From the IMG/VR virus record IMGVR_UViG_2529292834_000017: a stretch of DNA of 14,968 nucleotides; one strand, given 5' to 3'. The notes beneath the pieces are model-generated. The model searched no databases. It was not told the origin of the DNA and saw nothing but the letters and a program-made list of their open reading frames with translations. This document shows, one piece after another, positions 6,402 through 14,029 of this stretch. This DNA is from a virus. Its lineage: Duplodnaviria > Heunggongvirae > Uroviricota > Caudoviricetes. The position numbers and the translations under genes were made by a program. How positions within the stretch are numbered: position 1 is the first letter of the stretch; the number at the start of each line of letters is the position of its first letter.

Positions 6402-8753
6402 ATGCGAAACATTGATCTTATCCGTCAGGTTATCAGTGCGTCTGAAAACAACTGGCCTCATGTGCTGGACTGCCTGAACATAAATGTCCCTGACTCTCCG
6501 CGCCGTCATGCTCCCTGCCCTGCATGTGGGGGCAAAGATCGATTCCGGTTCGATGACAACGGGCGCGGTAGCTTCATCTGTAATCAGTGCGGCGCTGGTG
6601 ATGGGCTGGATTTAATTAAACGCGTAAATAACTGCGACACAACAGAGGCGGCGCTTCTTGCCGCTGATGTTCTGGGTATTGATTACCGGACAACGGAAAC
6701 ACCAGAAGCCACCAGCCAGAAACGGGAACAACTGGAAACCGAGCGCCAGCGACGCGAACAGGAGCGCCTGAAAAGGGCAGAGAAGGACGAACAACAAAGA
6801 CGGGATACGTTTTCCCGTCAGTTTGATGACATGCGCAGAAAGGCTGTAAACGGCAAATCTGATTATCTGGTTGCGAAAGGGGTAGGTGATTTTACATTCC
6901 CTGTGTTGCCCGATGGATCTCTGTTGCTGGCGCTGGTGGATAAATCCGGCGCAGTCACAGCAGCACAGACTATTACCTCACATGGTGAAAAAAGACTCCT
7001 GACAGGTTCAGCAAAGCGAGGGGCATATCACGCCATAAACGCACAGAAACGACCTCACAGCATCATAATTGCTGAGGGGGTGGCTACCGCCCTGTCGTGC
7101 CATTTAATTCGCCCTGACGCAATGACAGTGGCAGCAATCGACGCTGGCAACCTGTTGCCAGTAGCGGAAGTCATGCGCAGAACATATCCACAGGCACAAA
7201 TCATCATTGCCGCAGATAACGATCACCAGCAAGGAAACTCCGAAAGTGGAGGGATCAACACGGGGAAAGATGCCGCAGAGAGGGCCGCTATTTCCGTAGC
7301 TGGCTGGGTGTCTCTGCCACCGACTGACTATAAAGCCGACTGGAACGACTATCACCAACAACACGGGCTGGCGGCAGCCACAGCAGCATTTAAAGATTCG
7401 ATGTACCAGCCACGGGGGAAAGGGGCGCAGGTGAAAAATCACAAACAGTCAGTCGGGGCGCTGAATGAGATCAGTTCTGGCGAGGTGTTAAGCGATGATG
7501 AAATTGCTGTCCTCGAAGAAATCAACCGGACGTTTACGCATGTCACCATCGGCGGGAAACACAAGGTGGTGTCGCTAAAGCCTTCTCAAACCGGCGGTGT
7601 ATCGCACGTTTTCGAGGATTTATCACAATTTCAGCATTATTTTCATCATAAACCGAGAGTCGCCAGAAAGCTGGCGGGATCGGCGTGGCTGTCATGGAGT
7701 GGGAAGAACTACAAGCCAGGAGGCGTAGGATTTTATCCAGTACCAGACAAATGCCCTGACGATGTTTTTAATCTGTATGAGGGGCTGGCACTGGAACCAA
7801 TTGAAGGAGATTGCACGGTATACCTTAATCACCTGTTGCAGGTTGTCTGTGCCGGTAATGAAGAGGCATACCAATATCTTATCCAGTGGATGGCGCACAT
7901 TATCCAAAAGCCTGATGAAAAACCGTCCGTGGCAATCGTGATGAAATCTGTCCCGGGCACAGGGAAAGGCACAACGGTTAAACCGCTGCTGCAAATACTG
8001 GGGCAGTACGCCGCCCACATTAACGGGGCGGGACATATTTCAGGGCGCTTCAATTCAATACTTGCTAACAAGCTACTGGTATTTGCTGACGAAGTGACGA
8101 TCCACAAGCCGTCTGAAGCTGACAGACTTAAAGCGATTATTAGCGAACCGACGTTTAACCTTGAGCGCAAGGGAATTGATGCTGAACCAATGCCGAATTT
8201 TGCCCGGTTGATATTTGCCAGTAACAGCACACAGGTATTACAGGCAGGGATAAGAGAGCGCCGCTATCTCGTGCTTGAGCCATCTCCTGAAAAAGCACAG
8301 AGCCGGGAGTATTTTGATCGGCTGTACAGTTGGCTTAATGATGGCGGTGCCGCAAAGTTGCTTTGGCATCTTAAAGGGGTGGATCTCTCAGGTTTTGACC
8401 CTCAACGAGCGCCACAGACCGATGCCTTACGTGAAGAAATCTTGCTGGGGCTGTCTGGCGTTGAATTGTTTCTTTATGGCGAGCTAATCAATGAACCTCC
8501 GTTTAATGGCGAAGTCCGTTTGTTTGCAAAGGATATGGTTAGTCGATTTGTAGCGTGGTCGCTTGAGCGTGGGGAAAAGCTTAAAGAACCAGCTGCCAGA
8601 TCACTACTGGGTAAATCACTTGCACAAATGGGGCTGGTGAAGCATGGAAGACCAGACCGAGGGAATGGCGTGTTCTACGAACTACCAGAGGTCGGAGTTC
8701 TACAGGCTGCGTTTGCCCGTCTGATCGGTATGGGGGGGTATGATGTTTTTTAA
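6402..8753 (+). CDS. P4 alpha-type bifunctional DNA primase / SF3-like helicase (zinc ribbon + Toprim + D5/P4-family NTPase)
   Basis: 783-aa ORF with SD GGGGGC. N-terminal zinc ribbon CPACGGKDRFRFDDNGRGSFICNQCGAGDGLDLI (CxxC...CxxC), near-diagnostic of P4-alpha-like primases. Toprim-like IIIAEGVATAL and AADNDHQ (DxD). P-loop-like SVPGTGKGTT, Walker B-like LLVFADEV, sensor-like LIFASNS. Size matches P4 alpha (777 aa). Confidence 0.93.
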   Translation: MRNIDLIRQVISASENNWPHVLDCLNINVPDSPRRHAPCPACGGKDRFRFDDNGRGSFICNQCGAGDGLDLIKRVNNCDTTEAALLAADVLGIDYRTTETPEATSQKREQLETERQRREQERLKRAEKDEQQRRDTFSRQFDDMRRKAVNGKSDYLVAKGVGDFTFPVLPDGSLLLALVDKSGAVTAAQTITSHGEKRLLTGSAKRGAYHAINAQKRPHSIIIAEGVATALSCHLIRPDAMTVAAIDAGNLLPVAEVMRRTYPQAQIIIAADNDHQQGNSESGGINTGKDAAERAAISVAGWVSLPPTDYKADWNDYHQQHGLAAATAAFKDSMYQPRGKGAQVKNHKQSVGALNEISSGEVLSDDEIAVLEEINRTFTHVTIGGKHKVVSLKPSQTGGVSHVFEDLSQFQHYFHHKPRVARKLAGSAWLSWSGKNYKPGGVGFYPVPDKCPDDVFNLYEGLALEPIEGDCTVYLNHLLQVVCAGNEEAYQYLIQWMAHIIQKPDEKPSVAIVMKSVPGTGKGTTVKPLLQILGQYAAHINGAGHISGRFNSILANKLLVFADEVTIHKPSEADRLKAIISEPTFNLERKGIDAEPMPNFARLIFASNSTQVLQAGIRERRYLVLEPSPEKAQSREYFDRLYSWLNDGGAAKLLWHLKGVDLSGFDPQRAPQTDALREEILLGLSGVELFLYGELINEPPFNGEVRLFAKDMVSRFVAWSLERGEKLKEPAARSLLGKSLAQMGLVKHGRPDRGNGVFYELPEVGVLQAAFARLIGMGGYDVF

Positions 8754-8782
8754 TATAGTCTTTTTACAAGAAGATCGTTTTT

Positions 8783-8795
8783 ACCTGTACCACCT
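8783..8795 (-). repeat. Single iteron-like copy (reverse complement AGGTGGTACAGGT) 30 bp after the primase stop
   Basis: ACCTGTACCACCT on the + strand matches 13/14 of the GGTGGTACAGGTGG repeat clustered at 9809-9911. Confidence 0.45.
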
Positions 8796-8844
8796 ATACC
8801 ATTAACAAACGCATTTCTTCTGGCTGGCTGAGAGGGAACAACCA

Positions 8845-9075
8845 ATGATGAGCACACCATTTTACAAAGTGCGCCAGTTAGCTTCTTCCTCTGGCTGGCA
8901 GCTACGGTTTGAGGGGCGTTCAGACTGGCTACCCATTGCGGCATGGGCGAATGTTGAAATGTGTATTGACGGCGATACCGTTGAAATCATTATTCCCTGC
9001 GTGGCAAGTCGGGACGGCTGTATAGAGCCAACAGATATGGCAGCAGAAATCAGAGAGGTAAAACATGAACAATAA
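8845..9075 (+). CDS. Hypothetical protein (76 aa)
   Basis: SD GAGAGGGAA before the ATG at 8845. Overlaps the next gene by 11 nt. No recognisable motif. Confidence 0.55.
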   Translation: MMSTPFYKVRQLASSSGWQLRFEGRSDWLPIAAWANVEMCIDGDTVEIIIPCVASRDGCIEPTDMAAEIREVKHEQ

Positions 9076-9802
9076 CTATTGCATACTGCAGGGAATGACC
9101 AGAACGGAGCGCGAAGAATTAAAAAGTTTCGCTACACAGTGCGGGAATGCTGGCGACATCCAAAGTCTGGAACGCACTTTAATTATGATTGCGCACTGGA
9201 TGCGCCAGGGGCAAAGAGTTTCATTTACTGAATATGCCAGCCAGTGGACAGAGGCACAGCGCGAACGGAGCGACGGTAATCACTCAACACCCGAAATGGC
9301 GAAGCAATGGCCTTTCAGTGGTAAACGCTGTATCAGTCCCGGTGGTTCAGATTATTACCCTGCTGGTGTGGGAGATGAGCCATGTTGTGACGAGACTGAA
9401 ATCCGCCACGCAGTGACAGTAATTACCGCTGAATACCCACAATTTAACCTTGACGGACTGGCGCTCCACAACCGGAATGCGGACTGGGAAAACCCGCTTG
9501 ATAACCCGTCATTTATCGTATCGGCGAAAAGCTGCCTGAGATGGATCAGAGACAACGGGATGAGTAATGCCCAGATTGAGAGCTTCCCGCAGGATAACCC
9601 CACATCTGACACGTTGAAGCATGAAGTGGAGCGATATAACCAGATAAACCACCAGCACAGTGATCACCCGCACTATATCCCCAACGGAGCATTTATTGCG
9701 GCGATGGTGGCAAGCGGCTACAAGGTTAAGCCAGCGGGAAGAATGAACGCATTTTTCAATATTTCAAAAAAGGGATTATGTGCTGCTATGGGTAAAAATT
9801 AA
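9065..9802 (+). CDS. Hypothetical protein (245 aa), Cys/His-containing
   Basis: SD GAGAGG before the ATG at 9065. Contains CCDETEIRH and HQHSDHPHY segments. No recognisable family. Confidence 0.65.
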   Translation: MNNNYCILQGMTRTEREELKSFATQCGNAGDIQSLERTLIMIAHWMRQGQRVSFTEYASQWTEAQRERSDGNHSTPEMAKQWPFSGKRCISPGGSDYYPAGVGDEPCCDETEIRHAVTVITAEYPQFNLDGLALHNRNADWENPLDNPSFIVSAKSCLRWIRDNGMSNAQIESFPQDNPTSDTLKHEVERYNQINHQHSDHPHYIPNGAFIAAMVASGYKVKPAGRMNAFFNISKKGLCAAMGKN

Positions 9803-9808
9803 ATAAAT

Positions 9809-9911
9809 GGTACAGGTCTGTACAGGTGGGGAGAGGTCATTTTTACCCACCTGTACCACCTGCAGGCCGCGCCACACAAGGGTTTGTGACATGGTGGTAC
9901 AGGTGGTACAG
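9809..9911. repeat. Iteron cluster: at least 3 copies of GGTGGTACAGGTGG in both orientations, including an 11-bp perfect inverted repeat; candidate replication origin / crr-like site
   Basis: GGTACAGGT at 9809-9817; GTACAGGTGGG at 9820-9830 is perfectly inverted to CCCACCTGTAC at 9846-9856 (15-nt spacer); GGTGGTACAGGTGGTACAG at 9893-9911. Non-coding position downstream of the primase-helicase. The origin role is inference by analogy to P4 alpha binding iterons in ori/crr. Confidence 0.5.
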
Positions 9912-10228
9912 CAAAAACAGCGATTTTCTTTATAAGGTATGTTTTGCTCATCTGGCAGACGGAGGTATTCGCTGCGGTTTGGCACATAGCCCAGAACAGC
10001 AAAGAGTTTTACGAGACTTTTGTAAAATCCAGTGTACAAGGGCGTGACGTTTTTGAAGGTGAGCACTACGAAATTTTCGTAGTTCAAAAAATAGCCTCTG
10101 AGATGTTGTTATGCCTGTTCAGCAAACCATCCGCATAGCTGATCGCGAATCAAATTACCAATGGAGCCAGAAGCAAGGGCAGAACTGGAAAGCGCCTGCC
10201 GTGAAGAGTAATGCGACTCCATAAATAT

Positions 10229-10405: not shown

Positions 10406-10579
10406 ATGGCTATTTCAGTAAAGCCAGTATTGATAAGTGAGAAGCAAATGGAAGCGATAAAGAAAATTCAGGAGGAGCAGCGTAAAAAATCAGAGGTAGG
10501 AGTTGCGCCAACGATCCACGAAATTGCTCGGGGATTAATGGATAAGGCGCTGGCTTACACTTTAACTGGACGTGGGTAA
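10406..10579 (+). CDS. Small hypothetical protein (57 aa), first gene of the cargo operon
   Basis: Strong SD AAGGGGGG 6 nt before the ATG at 10406. Protein MAISVKPVLISEKQMEAIKKIQEEQRKKSEVGVAPTIHEIARGLMDKALAYTLTGRG, charged and helical-looking. Possible small regulator or partner protein; inference only. Confidence 0.6.
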   Translation: MAISVKPVLISEKQMEAIKKIQEEQRKKSEVGVAPTIHEIARGLMDKALAYTLTGRG

Positions 10580-10583
10580 ATTT

Positions 10584-11927
10584 ATGGCTACGTGGCAACA
10601 GGGTATTAATTCTGGTGGTTTTCTGGCTGGCATCGGTGCGCAAAATGAGAATGCGCCAAAGGCAAGCGACATTAACGCAACGCTTGGTCTGATCCGCGAA
10701 AACAATGAACTGGCTCGCTCAGGTGCAAATAACGTTGCTCTGACAGGTCTTCGTGGTCTGGCTGGAGTTGCTGACATTTATAAGCAGCAGCAACAGCAGG
10801 AACGTAAAGCGGCATTCCAGAAAGGTTATGCAGATGCTTATGCGTCCGGTGACAGGGAGCAGATGCGTAATCTTATTACAGCATTCCCAGAAGAGTTTGA
10901 GGAAGTCCGTAAAGGGATGAGTTATGTCGATGATGCTCAAAGGGATGATTATGGCAATCTGGCGCTCAAAGCACAGGTAGCCTCATCGCTTGGTCAGGGC
11001 GCATTTGGCAGGTTCATGATGGATAATGAGCAGGAGATGCGTCGTTTAGGTATCCCTCCAGAAACTATTGCTGAAATGCAGGTTAATGACCCGCAGGGCT
11101 TCCAGCATTTCGCAGGTAATCTGGCGCTGTTTTCTCTCGGTCATGAGAAGTATTTCGATATCAAAGATCAAATGGAAGGTCGTCGACTTGAGCAAGGGCG
11201 ACTGGATGAAAGTATGCGTCAGGCTGACATGGAGAACGCGAGAGGATGGGCAAATATCCAGAACGCTCAACTAGACAGGGCTCAGCGAGCACAAATTCAC
11301 TCAGATGAGATGGGATTGAAGCTAATGGAGCTGGGGCAAAAAGGTAAGCCGTCAGCAGACTTAATTAAGGGATTAAATTCTGACATTACCAATTTTGGCA
11401 AAAATTATAACTCTGTCAGAGCGGCGGCAAACTCTCTGCAAGCCCTTAGCAAGGTAAATACTGGCGCTGCCCAACTTGGGATTATCTTCAACTACATGAA
11501 ATCTCTTGACCCGCAGTCAGTCGTTCGTGAAGGCGAACAGGTTCAGGTAATGCGGTCTGATGGCATATGGGGACAAATCAAAGGATACATAGACCAGCTT
11601 AATGCTGGAAACGGCCTGTCGCAGGAGGCAAAGGATAACATTGTTAACGCCGCAAAAATCAACGCCAATGCTATGGGGCAGCAGTTTAACCAGCAGGTTG
11701 ACGAGTATCTCGATACATATGGAGAAACTATTCCTCAGGGGCTAAGAAAAAGCCTTGAAAGAAGGAAAGCGAAGCTATTTGACGATGTTTCCGGGCAGCC
11801 TACATCACAGGCTGGCACTGGACAGGCAAAAGCGGCAACCGGAGGAATATCAGAAGGCGCAACGGCAACCAACCCTAAAACTGGTCAGAAAATCATTTAC
11901 AGGAACGGAAAATGGCAGCAAATGTAA
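10584..11927 (+). CDS. Hypothetical coiled-coil-rich protein (~448 aa; 451 aa if GTG 10572 is used) with Gly-rich N-terminus
   Basis: Long ORF with coding-like composition. N-terminal Gly/Ala/Asn-rich segment (GINSGGFLAGIGAQNENAPK), then a Q/E/R-rich probable coiled coil (QADMENARGWANIQNAQLDRAQRAQIH). No Walker, nuclease or other catalytic motif seen. Start ambiguous between GTG 10572 (overlapping the upstream stop) and ATG 10584. Confidence 0.8.
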   Translation: MATWQQGINSGGFLAGIGAQNENAPKASDINATLGLIRENNELARSGANNVALTGLRGLAGVADIYKQQQQQERKAAFQKGYADAYASGDREQMRNLITAFPEEFEEVRKGMSYVDDAQRDDYGNLALKAQVASSLGQGAFGRFMMDNEQEMRRLGIPPETIAEMQVNDPQGFQHFAGNLALFSLGHEKYFDIKDQMEGRRLEQGRLDESMRQADMENARGWANIQNAQLDRAQRAQIHSDEMGLKLMELGQKGKPSADLIKGLNSDITNFGKNYNSVRAAANSLQALSKVNTGAAQLGIIFNYMKSLDPQSVVREGEQVQVMRSDGIWGQIKGYIDQLNAGNGLSQEAKDNIVNAAKINANAMGQQFNQQVDEYLDTYGETIPQGLRKSLERRKAKLFDDVSGQPTSQAGTGQAKAATGGISEGATATNPKTGQKIIYRNGKWQQM

Positions 11928-14029
11928 TCTTACCGGAAGGTTTTGTGCTCGATGAACAACCTGATAACTCACAGTTTCCTGATAGTTCACAGCTTCCTGA
12001 TGGTTTTGTGCTTGATGCCCAACCAGAACAGCAGCAATCACCTTTGGTTTCACCAGAGGAAAATTCCAGACAGGAAAATGTTGTTAATAATGCTAACGGT
12101 TTCGACCGTTTTATGTATGGCGTTCTCAGTGGATTGATGGATGTTGGTAAAGGTGTTGGCCTGTTTCAGGATATGACACCAGAAGAGCAAGCCGCAATTC
12201 AGTCTCTACAGCAGAAGTTAGCGGCAAAACCATCAACCGCACAAGATGTTGGTGAGTTCGTTGGACAAGCAGCGCCATTTGTTAGTGGTGGTGGGATTAT
12301 TTCTCAGGTTCCCAAAGGGGCGGCAAGACTGGCTGCCGCCGCAGGGCTTGGTGCTGGAGAAGGGGCTATTGTAGCCAATGGAACAAATAGCGATGTTGCT
12401 TCCGGCGCTGCTATTGGCGCTGTGGCTGGCCCTGTAGCCGAACTTGCTGGCCCTGCAATTAATAAAATAGCTGGGAAATTAACCAAGAAGAATGTTTCTT
12501 CGATTCCAGATATTGAGGGGATTACTCCTGCCGAAGAGAAAATTCGTAAGTTATCTGCACAAGGCAACCCAAATCTTGCCTCTTCGCTTGAAGGGCTAGA
12601 TCTAAAACCTCAGAAAGAAATTGTTGAGGCTGCAAATAGGCTTCATGTTGATTCAGTTCTTCCTTCTCATTTATCAGGAAATGAGCAATACCAAGCTGTA
12701 GAGCAAGCCCTAAAGTCACGGACAGGATCAGCGTTAAAAGCTCAAGAAGATAAAGCAATAAGCGAATTAGCCTCTAGTGCTGGCAAGATAATCGATGATG
12801 TTGCTGGTGCGCCAGATGCGTTAGCTATGAGCGAAAAATATATTTATCAGATAAATAGTAGAATGGAAGCACTAAAAAACCGTAGTGATCAGTTATATAA
12901 ACGTGTTGATTCCGCTCTATCACCAAGAACAAAAGTCGAAGCAAATAACACAAGCACTATGCTGGAAAAAATCGCTGATGATTTAGGAGGGTGGGATAAT
13001 CTTGACCCAATAGAAAAGCGAGTTTTTACAGCAATAAACCCCGGCCCAGATAGCATCCTAACGTATGCAAATTTAAACAGGCAAAGGCGTTTAGTTGGTG
13101 ATGCCCTAAATAAAAAGCAGGGGCCATACAAAGATGCTGATAAAGAAGCGCTATCAAGACTATATGGAGCTTTAGCTGAAGACCAAAAATCTGTCTTATC
13201 CAATACTGGATACTTGCGAGATTTCGAAGTCGCACAACGCCTTGTAGCTATGAGAAAAAACTTAGAAAGGCAAATGGTAAATCTTCGCGGGAAAACACTT
13301 AATGGGGATATAGCGTATAAAGTAACGAATTCTCTTCAATCTATGGCAAAAGGTGATGCGAGAGGGTTTCGTGAGATTATGCAAAATACTCCATCAAGAA
13401 CATTGCGAAGGGAGCTAGTAGGAACAGCATTAAGAGATATGCTTTCCTCTGGGAAGCGTGGGGCCGACTTTAATCCATCTGGCTTCGCAGATTGGTGGCA
13501 AAACTTGCAACACAGTGGACAGCTAAAGACTTTGGCTGAACATTTGCCAAAAGAAACAATGAGCGGACTATATGATGTATACAAAGTTGCCAGAGCAATA
13601 AAAAATGCTAAAGCGCATGAAATATCTACTGGTAAGCTGAATGAGTTTGTAAACAGATTTAATCGGGTAACAGCTCCATACGAACTAGCAGCAAAACACA
13701 TTCAAAAAATAGGCACGATGGTAGGCGCTCATTTTGGATCGCTTGGAGCCATTGCTGGGGCTGATATTGGAGCAAGATTGGCGAGTAAAGCTCGATTAGC
13801 TGGTGGAGCAGGGGCGGCTGATGCTGCGGATAAATTAATTGCCTCGCCAGCCTTCCAGAGCGCAGTAAAAAATCTACACGGAAAAGCGCCTGGGCACATT
13901 GTTGATTCACGTATCAGGCGCTCCCCTCAATGGAAGAGTTTTTTTAACTCTCTTCCTGAACAGGAAAAACGGACCATCGCCAGACTGGGCATCATTACTT
14001 GGCTATCTAATGATCCAGATAATGACTAG
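11912..14029 (+). CDS. Hypothetical 705-aa protein with N-terminal tandem repeat and Gly/Ala-rich amphipathic segments
   Basis: ATG at 11912 with AGGAA 6 nt upstream; overlaps the end of the upstream gene by 16 nt. N-terminus has a tandem repeat LPEGFVLDEQP / LPDGFVLDAQP. Gly/Ala-rich stretches at residues ~125-180 (AARLAAAAGLGAGEGAIVANG...AIGAVAGPVAELAGPAINKIAGKL) and near the C-terminus (GSLGAIAGADIGARLASKARLAGGAGAADAADKLIASPA). No enzymatic motif recognised. GC content drops sharply after ~12500. Confidence 0.85.
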   Translation: MAANVILPEGFVLDEQPDNSQFPDSSQLPDGFVLDAQPEQQQSPLVSPEENSRQENVVNNANGFDRFMYGVLSGLMDVGKGVGLFQDMTPEEQAAIQSLQQKLAAKPSTAQDVGEFVGQAAPFVSGGGIISQVPKGAARLAAAAGLGAGEGAIVANGTNSDVASGAAIGAVAGPVAELAGPAINKIAGKLTKKNVSSIPDIEGITPAEEKIRKLSAQGNPNLASSLEGLDLKPQKEIVEAANRLHVDSVLPSHLSGNEQYQAVEQALKSRTGSALKAQEDKAISELASSAGKIIDDVAGAPDALAMSEKYIYQINSRMEALKNRSDQLYKRVDSALSPRTKVEANNTSTMLEKIADDLGGWDNLDPIEKRVFTAINPGPDSILTYANLNRQRRLVGDALNKKQGPYKDADKEALSRLYGALAEDQKSVLSNTGYLRDFEVAQRLVAMRKNLERQMVNLRGKTLNGDIAYKVTNSLQSMAKGDARGFREIMQNTPSRTLRRELVGTALRDMLSSGKRGADFNPSGFADWWQNLQHSGQLKTLAEHLPKETMSGLYDVYKVARAIKNAKAHEISTGKLNEFVNRFNRVTAPYELAAKHIQKIGTMVGAHFGSLGAIAGADIGARLASKARLAGGAGAADAADKLIASPAFQSAVKNLHGKAPGHIVDSRIRRSPQWKSFFNSLPEQEKRTIARLGIITWLSNDPDND

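Follow-up and report, generated by a model that had tools for sequence, protein, structure and literature searches.

A putative iteron origin of the P4/PICI type behind the primase-helicase gene of an Escherichia coli phage satellite island

Background

The closest described counterparts of the region considered here are the replication origins of phage P4 and of the phage-inducible chromosomal islands (PICIs) of Gram-negative bacteria. According to Fillol-Salom et al. 2018 (PMC6092414), the origin of a Gram-negative PICI is located immediately 3' of the replication initiator gene (pri-rep), and the pri-ori segment of EcCICFT073, which was tested by those authors, drives plasmid maintenance. 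In this study, we analyzed the short repeats that follow the gene for a 783-aa primase-helicase in a 14,968-nucleotide stretch of DNA (IMG/VR record IMGVR_UViG_2529292834_000017; the whole stretch is referred to as the window). We consider, with a probability of roughly 0.8 and on the basis of sequence comparison, that the island replicates from an origin of its own, that these repeats are the iterons of that origin, and that the island's primase-helicase binds them. The comparison supports an iteron origin of the P4/PICI type, a kind already known, with a repeat sequence and specificity of its own; the modestly new points are the 1-kb split between its modules, a deletion in this copy, and a geometry kept across helicase modules without detectable similarity.

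In the GenBank record of P4, the type-1 repeats (TGTTCACC) of the origin, ori, are located at 9310, 9320, and 9331 (- strand), at 9353 (+ strand), and at 9396 and 9406 (- strand), and crr consists of two 120-bp repeats that carry the same octamer and lie directly after the alpha gene. Read in the orientation of alpha, ori is composed of CTGTTCACC t CTGTTCACC, a 34-bp AT-rich spacer, GGTGAACA, 13 bp, and three copies of CTGTTCACC; the crr repeats have the opposite orientation, which corresponds to that of site B described below. A mirror layout of two such modules (A+B) was found in EcCICFT073 with the iteron GGTAGACAG (its helicase is 41% identical to that of alpha) and in EcCIRM13514 with the P4 octamer TGTTCACC (its Pri-Rep is 49% identical to residues 301-771 of P4 alpha). 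In the iteron plasmids RK2, F, and pPS10, Rep winged-helix proteins bind 17-22-bp direct iterons, and a second set of iterons may act in copy control.

Repeat units and their positions in the window

The original prediction had described an iteron family, represented by the 14-mer GGTGGTACAGGTGG, on both sides of the two genes downstream of the primase-helicase gene. The family was real: its 8-mer core, GTACAGGT, is present five times in the window, at 8783 (-), 9810 (+), 9820 (+), 9849 (-), and 9897 (+), against an expectation of 0.13 (0 of 200 shuffles reached 5), and no copy was found elsewhere in the 15-kb window beyond 8783-8801 and 9808-9912. The 14-mer itself is exact at 9847-9860 (-) and 9893-9906 (+) and has two mismatches at 8781-8794 (-); when three or fewer mismatches were allowed, eight matches were obtained against 0.60 expected (0 of 200 shuffles reached 8). 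As a unit, the 14-mer had to be revised, because it is made of two overlapping tandem 9-bp units; the repeat unit is the 9-bp iteron TGGTACAGG (CCTGTACCA on the other strand), with Y tolerated at position 5. Seven of these short units are present, in both orientations and in two clusters, and none elsewhere in the 15 kb.

The upstream cluster, site A, begins 30 bp past the stop of the primase-helicase gene (ORF (open reading frame) end, 8753; site start, 8783), as had been predicted. The prediction of a single copy at this place was not correct, since the site (8783-8801, - strand) is a remnant with two tandem units, CCTGTACCA at 8784-8792 and CCTATACCA at 8793-8801, and its 19-mer is the junction of an 85-bp deletion in comparison with every relative examined (see below). 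The predicted cluster of at least three copies about 1 kb further on, with a perfect 11-bp inverted repeat, was confirmed as site B, which contains five units and lies about 1.05 kb from the first, directly after the stop (9802) of a 245-aa ORF. Its inner units (9808-9826, + strand; collinear with site B of relatives) are B1, TGGTACAGG, at 9808-9816 and B2, the degenerate cTGTACAGG, at 9818-9826. They are followed by the inverted single unit B3 (9850-9858, - strand; CCTGTACCA), which forms with B2 the perfect 11-bp inverted repeat (9820-9830/9846-9856), by a 36-bp GC-rich spacer (9859-9894; 36% A+T), and by the outer tandem pair with a 9-bp period (9895-9912, + strand), that is, B4, TGGTACAGG, at 9895-9903 and B5, TGGTACAGc, at 9904-9912. 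A perfect 14-bp inverted repeat was also found (9847-9860/9893-9906), and the outer pairs of the two sites mirror each other (8779-8801 against 9895-9917; 23 nt, 87% complementary). The scan gave no promoter-like or terminator-like motif overlapping either site, and the 11-bp hairpin has no T-tract.

Layout and conservation of the two modules

Loci encoding relatives of the primase-helicase were fetched and compared (L-numbered loci; L001 is the near-identical island of E. coli 99-3165). Clusters of GGTACAG were found downstream of the gene wherever the helicase/C-terminal half of the protein is of the window type (exception, L040), and the units were conserved across Escherichia, Buttiauxella, Pantoea, Raoultella, Enterobacter, Salmonella, Xenorhabdus, Sodalis, Citrobacter, Yersinia, and Photobacterium. 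The layout of site A is nearly constant, with "-" units at 0 and +9 relative to the first unit, a "+" unit at +54, and three more "-" units near +74, +85, and +95. It was found in the first eight of these genera, in a P4-like Citrobacter satellite, and in two uncultured contigs, and a shorter form was found in the capsid-encoding Yersinia island (L037). The 2+1+3 layout and its spacing were equal in L001-L003, L030-L036, and L042, and the position of the first unit just 3' of the pri-rep gene was equal in 12 relatives. In the alignment of site A, the unit columns were invariant or nearly so, and the spacers diverged.

Site B is the reverse complement of the site A module, with two or three "+" units, one "-" unit, the spacer, and two "+" units, and it was collinear in the window, L001, L002, L030, L032, L034-L037, L039, and L042. 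The module of about 105 bp is composed of two tandem 9-bp units, a spacer of 35-37 bp, one inverted unit, 10-20 bp, and two or three units, and the two mirror-image modules were observed in relatives from at least 12 genera. Of the 23 modules measured, 22 had a long spacer of 35-37 bp, and that of site B of L036 was 26 bp; the spacer of site A contained 58-83% A+T in 10 of 12 loci.

The distance between the modules was variable. Modules A and B are separated by orf76 and orf245 in the window, L001, L002, L030, and L032, and by one small gene in Xenorhabdus (L034); they are adjacent in L026, Sodalis (L035), Citrobacter (L036), Yersinia (L037), L042, and EcCICFT073 (L080). Module A alone is present in L003, L031, and L033, and module B alone, 3.3 kb downstream, in Photobacterium (L039). 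Because A and B are adjacent in many relatives, the bracketing of the two genes is a lineage-specific split of a normally contiguous structure; the predicted bracketing thus holds for the window, and does not hold as a general feature.

The site B spacer of the window contains a GC box, CAGGCCGCGCC (9862-9885), that is often followed by ATTACTGG and is common to the site B spacers of L002, L030, L036, and L042. The same box is present in EcCICFT073 (about 7190-7225 of L080), of which the iterons and the initiator type differ. The AT-rich B spacers of Xenorhabdus, Sodalis, Photobacterium, and EcCIRM13514 lack the box. It may be bound by a common host factor or may serve as a priming signal.

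Three further observations were made on the modules and their surroundings. A pattern scan of IMG/VR for the module gave 37 matches, about half of which are chance matches and one of which is a collagen-repeat ORF. GGTACAG clusters with the geometry of a pair, 45 bp, and an inverted unit were observed in four IMG/VR contigs (L047, 7717-7889; L051, 8287-8500; L055, 2569-2848; L068, 2728-3007), directly downstream of genes for VapE-like helicases (PF05272), the C-termini of which have no sequence similarity to the window protein; these cases may be due to convergence, or the DNA-binding domains may be very remotely homologous. In Photobacterium sp. DA100 (L039, 5341-8725), genes for a DNA methylase, a HEPN protein, and a GmrSD-like nuclease are located between the helicase gene and the module. 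It appears that a hotspot of defence genes was inserted here, between the initiator gene and the origin.

Iteron type and the helicase/C-terminal module

The primase-helicase (783 aa; 6402-8753, + strand) is composed of a Zn-ribbon, a Toprim primase domain, a DUF5906 helicase of the superfamily 3 (SF3) type, and a C-terminal domain (Pfam PF08273, PF13362, and PF19263). Over the N-terminal 335 aa it shares 33% identity with P4 alpha (E-value, 9e-41), and its helicase region matches the structures of NrS-1-type primase-helicases (6k9c/6k9e). The match to TIGR01613 ("P4 family primase C-term") scored 20 bits against a cutoff of 108.7, and, by sequence, the helicase of the window belongs to an SF3 subfamily different from that of alpha. 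The protein is a mosaic with a breakpoint near residue 340 (about nucleotide 7420): the N-terminal Zn-ribbon/Toprim part (up to 87% identity) is joined in other species to an unrelated C-terminal half of the 918-aa type, and the helicase/C-terminal half of the window type is also found behind different N-termini or without any (555-aa and 446-aa proteins). In the homologue search, the C-terminal 143 aa alone gave fragments only, and a 443-aa query worked. No phage or plasmid record with 60% or more protein identity to the helicase/C-terminal half was found; the phage and plasmid collections contained distant relatives only, including small plasmids of which the sole large gene encodes the primase-helicase.

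At least nine iteron types were present among the fetched loci, and the type follows the helicase/C-terminal module. The proteins of the DUF5906 type with a C-terminal domain 35-100% identical to that of the window were accompanied by GGTACAG, and P0082 (39% identical), also of this type, was accompanied by TGGGTTAGA with the 2+1+3 layout kept. The proteins of the 918-aa type, of which the N-terminal domain is up to 87% identical to that of the window, were accompanied by TGAACCAAC, TGAGACAAC, ACGGGTTA, ATCCCTAC, or CCGGTCAC, starting about 25 bp past the stop, and the proteins of the P4-alpha type by TGTTCACC or GGTAGACAG. The iteron type was independent of the N-terminal primase domain, of the island backbone, and of the two bracketed genes; L012 and L008 have identical spacing patterns and different iterons, and the iterons were kept beside two proteins without the Zn-ribbon/Toprim part (L037 and L039). 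A gradual change of the iteron with C-terminal identity was rejected, since the 7-bp GGTACAG was constant from 100% to 35% identity. A single discrete switch was observed, to TGGGTTAGA in P0082 at 39%; P0022, at 37%, keeps GGTACAG. In this sequence comparison across relatives with divergent primase C-termini, a check that had been proposed together with the original prediction, the only constant partner of the iteron is therefore the helicase/C-terminal module.

Within this module, the C-terminal domain (about residues 700-783; 8499-8750, + strand) was predicted to be a winged helix by a structure model with moderate scores. The fold is consistent with DNA binding, and we infer from the model that this domain may be the one that recognizes the iterons; the 783-aa protein is accordingly proposed as the iteron-binding initiator. 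Homology to the P4 domain is not established by the model: no sequence match was obtained between the C-terminal domain and 1KA8 (the C-terminal fragment of P4 alpha), which the PDB sequence search did not reach, and 1KA8 was not among the top listed structural matches of the model.

Deletion at site A in this copy

In L001, the full site A (9084-9187) consists of ACCTGTACCACCTATACCA, a 35-bp AT-rich spacer, GTGGTACAGGT, 9 bp, and ACCTATACCA g ACCTGTACCACCTATACCA. The window keeps only one copy of the 19-mer ACCTGTACCACCTATACCA (8783-8801). The missing 85 bp include the AT-rich spacer, the inverted unit, and two more units, and four of the original six units have been lost. The single 19-mer retained is the product expected of recombination between the two direct 19-mers, which indicates a deletion between direct repeats. 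The full six-unit site A (2+1+3) is present in L001, three IMG/VR copies, L002, L003, and L030-L037. In E. coli, where 130 complete genomes carry the region, the span was 286 bp against 201 bp of the query, i.e., 85 bp more, in every match listed, and the deleted form was seen neither among the matches listed of these genomes nor in the three IMG/VR copies. The deletion may be a real inactivating event or an assembly collapse at the 19-bp direct repeats. With the AT-rich spacer of module A lost and a GC-rich spacer (36% A+T) in module B, this copy may be impaired; its replication may be poor or may start from module B only. The deletion suggests that the island may be replication-impaired and bears on whether it is still mobilizable.

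A decay of the opposite kind was observed in E. coli 99-3165 and other strains (L001, 8275-9054), in which the primase-helicase is reduced to a 259-aa C-terminal fragment and the full module A is kept; the window has an intact gene and a damaged origin.

Alternative explanations

The repeats could be operators of a transcription regulator (the AlpA-like helix-turn-helix (HTH) protein, Ash/AntA, orf76, or an autoregulating primase-helicase) that controls orf76-orf245 and the downstream operon. In favor of this reading, the start of orf76 follows site A at a distance of about 45 bp, the next gene block follows site B, and inverted repeats are typical of operators; moreover, origin-binding initiators often autoregulate. 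However, no sigma-70-like promoter overlaps either site, and the units are present irrespective of what lies behind them (SSB, capsid, or defence genes, or no gene at all). The candidate regulators also fit poorly: orf76 encodes an acidic protein and is absent from five iteron-bearing loci, and islands that have quite different iterons also encode AlpA, Ash, and AntA. At least 11 units in a fixed 2+1+3 mirror layout identical to that of P4 ori are not operator-like either. We therefore regard the operator of an unrelated regulator, one of the outcomes that had been named as refuting the original prediction, as improbable.

Two other functions would make use of the inverted arrangement or of the repetition as such. 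If the clusters were the ends of a mobile or invertible orf76-orf245 cassette (recombination sites or terminal inverted repeats), the 23-nt inverted repeat, 87% complementary, that flanks the two genes would be accounted for, as would the bracketed content, which varies by lineage (none, orf73, or orf76 and orf245). This is very hard to reconcile with the adjacent clusters of L026, L035, L036, L037, L042, and L080, which have no gene between them, with the lack of a recombinase gene between the clusters, and with the constant orientation of orf76/orf245 in all loci (the E. coli matches listed are collinear with the window on a single strand); the sole rearrangement seen was the deletion between direct 19-bp repeats, and no inversion was seen. 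A packaging signal, such as pac or cos-adjacent sites for the small terminase of a helper phage, is likewise given a very small chance. Terminase-binding sites can be short repeats, and PICIs carry cos or pac sites for the helper, as stated in PMC6092414; nevertheless, the units follow the helicase/C-terminal module and no packaging gene, the same layout in P4 is annotated as ori/crr and is separate from cos, and the cos of EcCICFT073 is described separately from its ori.

Several points weigh against an iteron origin bound by the primase-helicase. The helicase/C-terminal half (beyond residue 337) showed no similarity to P4 alpha with BLASTP or hhalign. The two-module arrangement is not obligatory, as seen in the loci with only A (L003, L031, and L033) or only B (L039), and L040 has no recognizable iterons. 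In the window, module A is cut down and the spacer of module B is 36% A+T, so that no obvious unwinding element is left within a module. The co-occurrence of iteron and helicase could also partly reflect physical linkage, since the two are adjacent; selection on the units themselves is argued because conservation is limited to the units and does not extend to the spacers, and because L039 keeps the module at a distance. The iteron origin is nevertheless the reading that we prefer: the candidate origin of the original prediction is supported by the conservation of the units in diverged intergenic DNA, by their position 3' of pri-rep, and by the layout of EcCICFT073.

Proposed mechanism and implications

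If P4 alpha is taken as a model, the units would be bound by the C-terminal winged-helix domain of the 783-aa protein, and protomers on opposed units around the spacer of about 36 bp (AT-rich in module A of most relatives) would melt it. The SF3-type helicase would then load as a ring and the Toprim domain would prime, and the host polymerase would carry out bidirectional theta replication after induction and excision of the island. The second module might load a second helicase, or might act as a crr-like cis-acting enhancer via protein-mediated looping.

A broader and rather doubtful idea is that P4 ori/crr, the contiguous A+B of PICIs, and the 1-kb split are forms of one ancestral bipartite origin, with two mirror-image 2+1+3 modules and a fixed 36-bp spacer, that was kept across helicase types (P4-alpha, DUF5906, and possibly VapE-like) and at least nine iteron specificities. 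The modules would then tolerate inserted genes because the initiator loops them together, and the conserved GC box would be a common host-factor site or a priming signal. If this is true, it would explain the long-unexplained requirement for P4 crr in cis.

An origin at this place would explain what the conserved non-coding repeats do in a common family of E. coli satellite islands, and would provide a rule for the annotation of satellite origins, namely a 2+1+3 mirror module directly after the primase-helicase gene. The natural pairs of initiator and iteron (TGGTACAGG, TGGGTTAGA, TGTTCACC, GGTAGACAG, TGAACCAAC, and others) could be used to study how the winged helices of SF3 primase-helicases read DNA, and the same specificity pairs could be used for the compatibility of co-resident satellites. 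The split arrangement ties the PICI origin to the P4 ori/crr puzzle.

Island context and neighboring genes

The window encodes, in this order, a tyrosine integrase, an AlpA-like HTH protein, AntA, Ash, the primase-helicase, orf76, orf245, and homologues of P22-type ejection proteins (ORF map with Pfam and PHROGs), all of which are transcribed rightward (+ strand). The gene order of Gram-negative PICIs, i.e., int, an alpA-like gene, and pri-rep in one direction followed by the iteron sites, is present in the window. The island is thus most likely a PICI-type (PICI/P4-like) phage satellite of E. coli. The near-identical island of E. coli 99-3165 is located between yicC and dinD, the site at which EcCIRM13514 is listed in the supplement of Fillol-Salom et al. 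2018 (PMC6092414), and the integrase of the window is 89% identical to that of EcCIRM13514. The att core of EcCIRM13514, GAGCAGATTCAA, had no match in the window, which itself does not contain the island junctions, and no cos or terS was identified in the window.

Both genes between the modules are on the + strand. The product of orf76 (8845-9075) is a small protein, acidic by residue count, and orf245 (9065-9802) starts within the end of orf76; neither had a significant family match in Pfam, PHROGs, or NCBIfam. Homologues of orf76 follow site A in L001-L003 and L027-L034 and are absent from L035-L037, L039, and L042, all of which have the same iterons; orf245 is present in L001, L002, and L027-L032 and absent from L003, L033-L037, L039, and L042. 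The products of orf76 and orf245 were considered as the binding protein and rejected, because neither has a family match and five loci with the same iterons lack both.

Homologues of P22-type ejection/DNA-transfer proteins are encoded at 10572-14029 of the window (Inj_translocase, 451 aa; a 705-aa "DNA transfer protein", phrog_6704/phrog_770). These proteins are cargo of a PICI-like island, which is unusual for a satellite, and the region is truncated in E. coli 99-3165. Between site B and the next ORFs, the short segment 10053-10154 resembles, at 75-95% identity, parts of Klebsiella and Shewanella phages for which the annotation is hypothetical protein or anti-repressor. The motif TCTGGCTGGC was enriched in the window (nine matches with one or no mismatch against 1.09 expected), with positions including 8819-8828, 8890-8899, and 10622-10631; it is also found at 7507 in L002, 6420 in L030, and 6684 in L042. 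It recurs 15-25 bp upstream of the first post-origin gene in several relatives, whichever gene this is; many other copies lie inside conserved coding sequence, and coding bias may explain part of the enrichment.

Comparison with known origins

The winged-helix initiator domain (predicted here) and the repeated sites are shared with the iteron plasmids, from which the present locus differs in its 9-bp units, in their occurrence in both orientations, in the fixed mirror geometry, and in an initiator that is itself helicase and primase. With the Gram-positive origins, in part as summarized in PMC6092414, it shares the location of the origin directly 3' of the initiator gene, two sets of iterons that flank a melting region, and a matched specificity of initiator and iteron; the sequence of the initiator and the length and sequence of the iteron are unrelated to theirs. 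A literature text search with the iteron string of the window gave no match; the PICI iterons drawn in Fig. 2a of PMC6092414 lie outside the scope of that search.

The analogy with P4, on which the original prediction was based, was borne out by the geometry. P4 ori aligns block for block with site A of relatives, and site B of the window agrees with the geometry of the P4 module, with a 36-bp spacer: in both systems, two units, a spacer of about 35 bp (AT-rich in P4 and in site A of most relatives), one inverted unit, and three units follow each other, a second iteron region has the opposite orientation, as in crr, and the initiator gene is directly followed by one of the iteron regions. The initiators are alike in that a Zn-ribbon/Toprim primase is fused to an SF3 helicase and a C-terminal domain (predicted to bind DNA in the window protein). 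Unlike in P4, the iteron is TGGTACAGG here and TGTTCACC in P4, and only the N-terminal primase domain is similar to that of alpha (33%), the helicase and C-terminal halves having no detectable similarity. The specificity is hence probably distinct, as had been predicted, and C-terminal halves of the P4 type do carry TGTTCACC. The arrangement also differs, since in P4 the crr (two B-type 120-bp repeats) follows alpha and ori is 4.5 kb away, whereas here the A-type module follows the gene and B is located 1 kb further on.

The Gram-negative PICI origins of EcCICFT073 and EcCIRM13514 differ from the present locus in that the helicase/C-terminal module of their Pri-Rep is of the P4-alpha type and not DUF5906, and in their iterons; moreover, A and B are parted by two genes in the window, and its module A is partly deleted. 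They share with it the A+B mirror layout and the island backbone, including the yicC-dinD site of L001 in the case of EcCIRM13514, and EcCICFT073 also has the GC box in the B spacer. The prediction of a separation of the P4 ori/crr type was right as an analogy, and of the known arrangements the contiguous PICI origin, not the 4.5-kb separation of P4, comes closest to that of the window.

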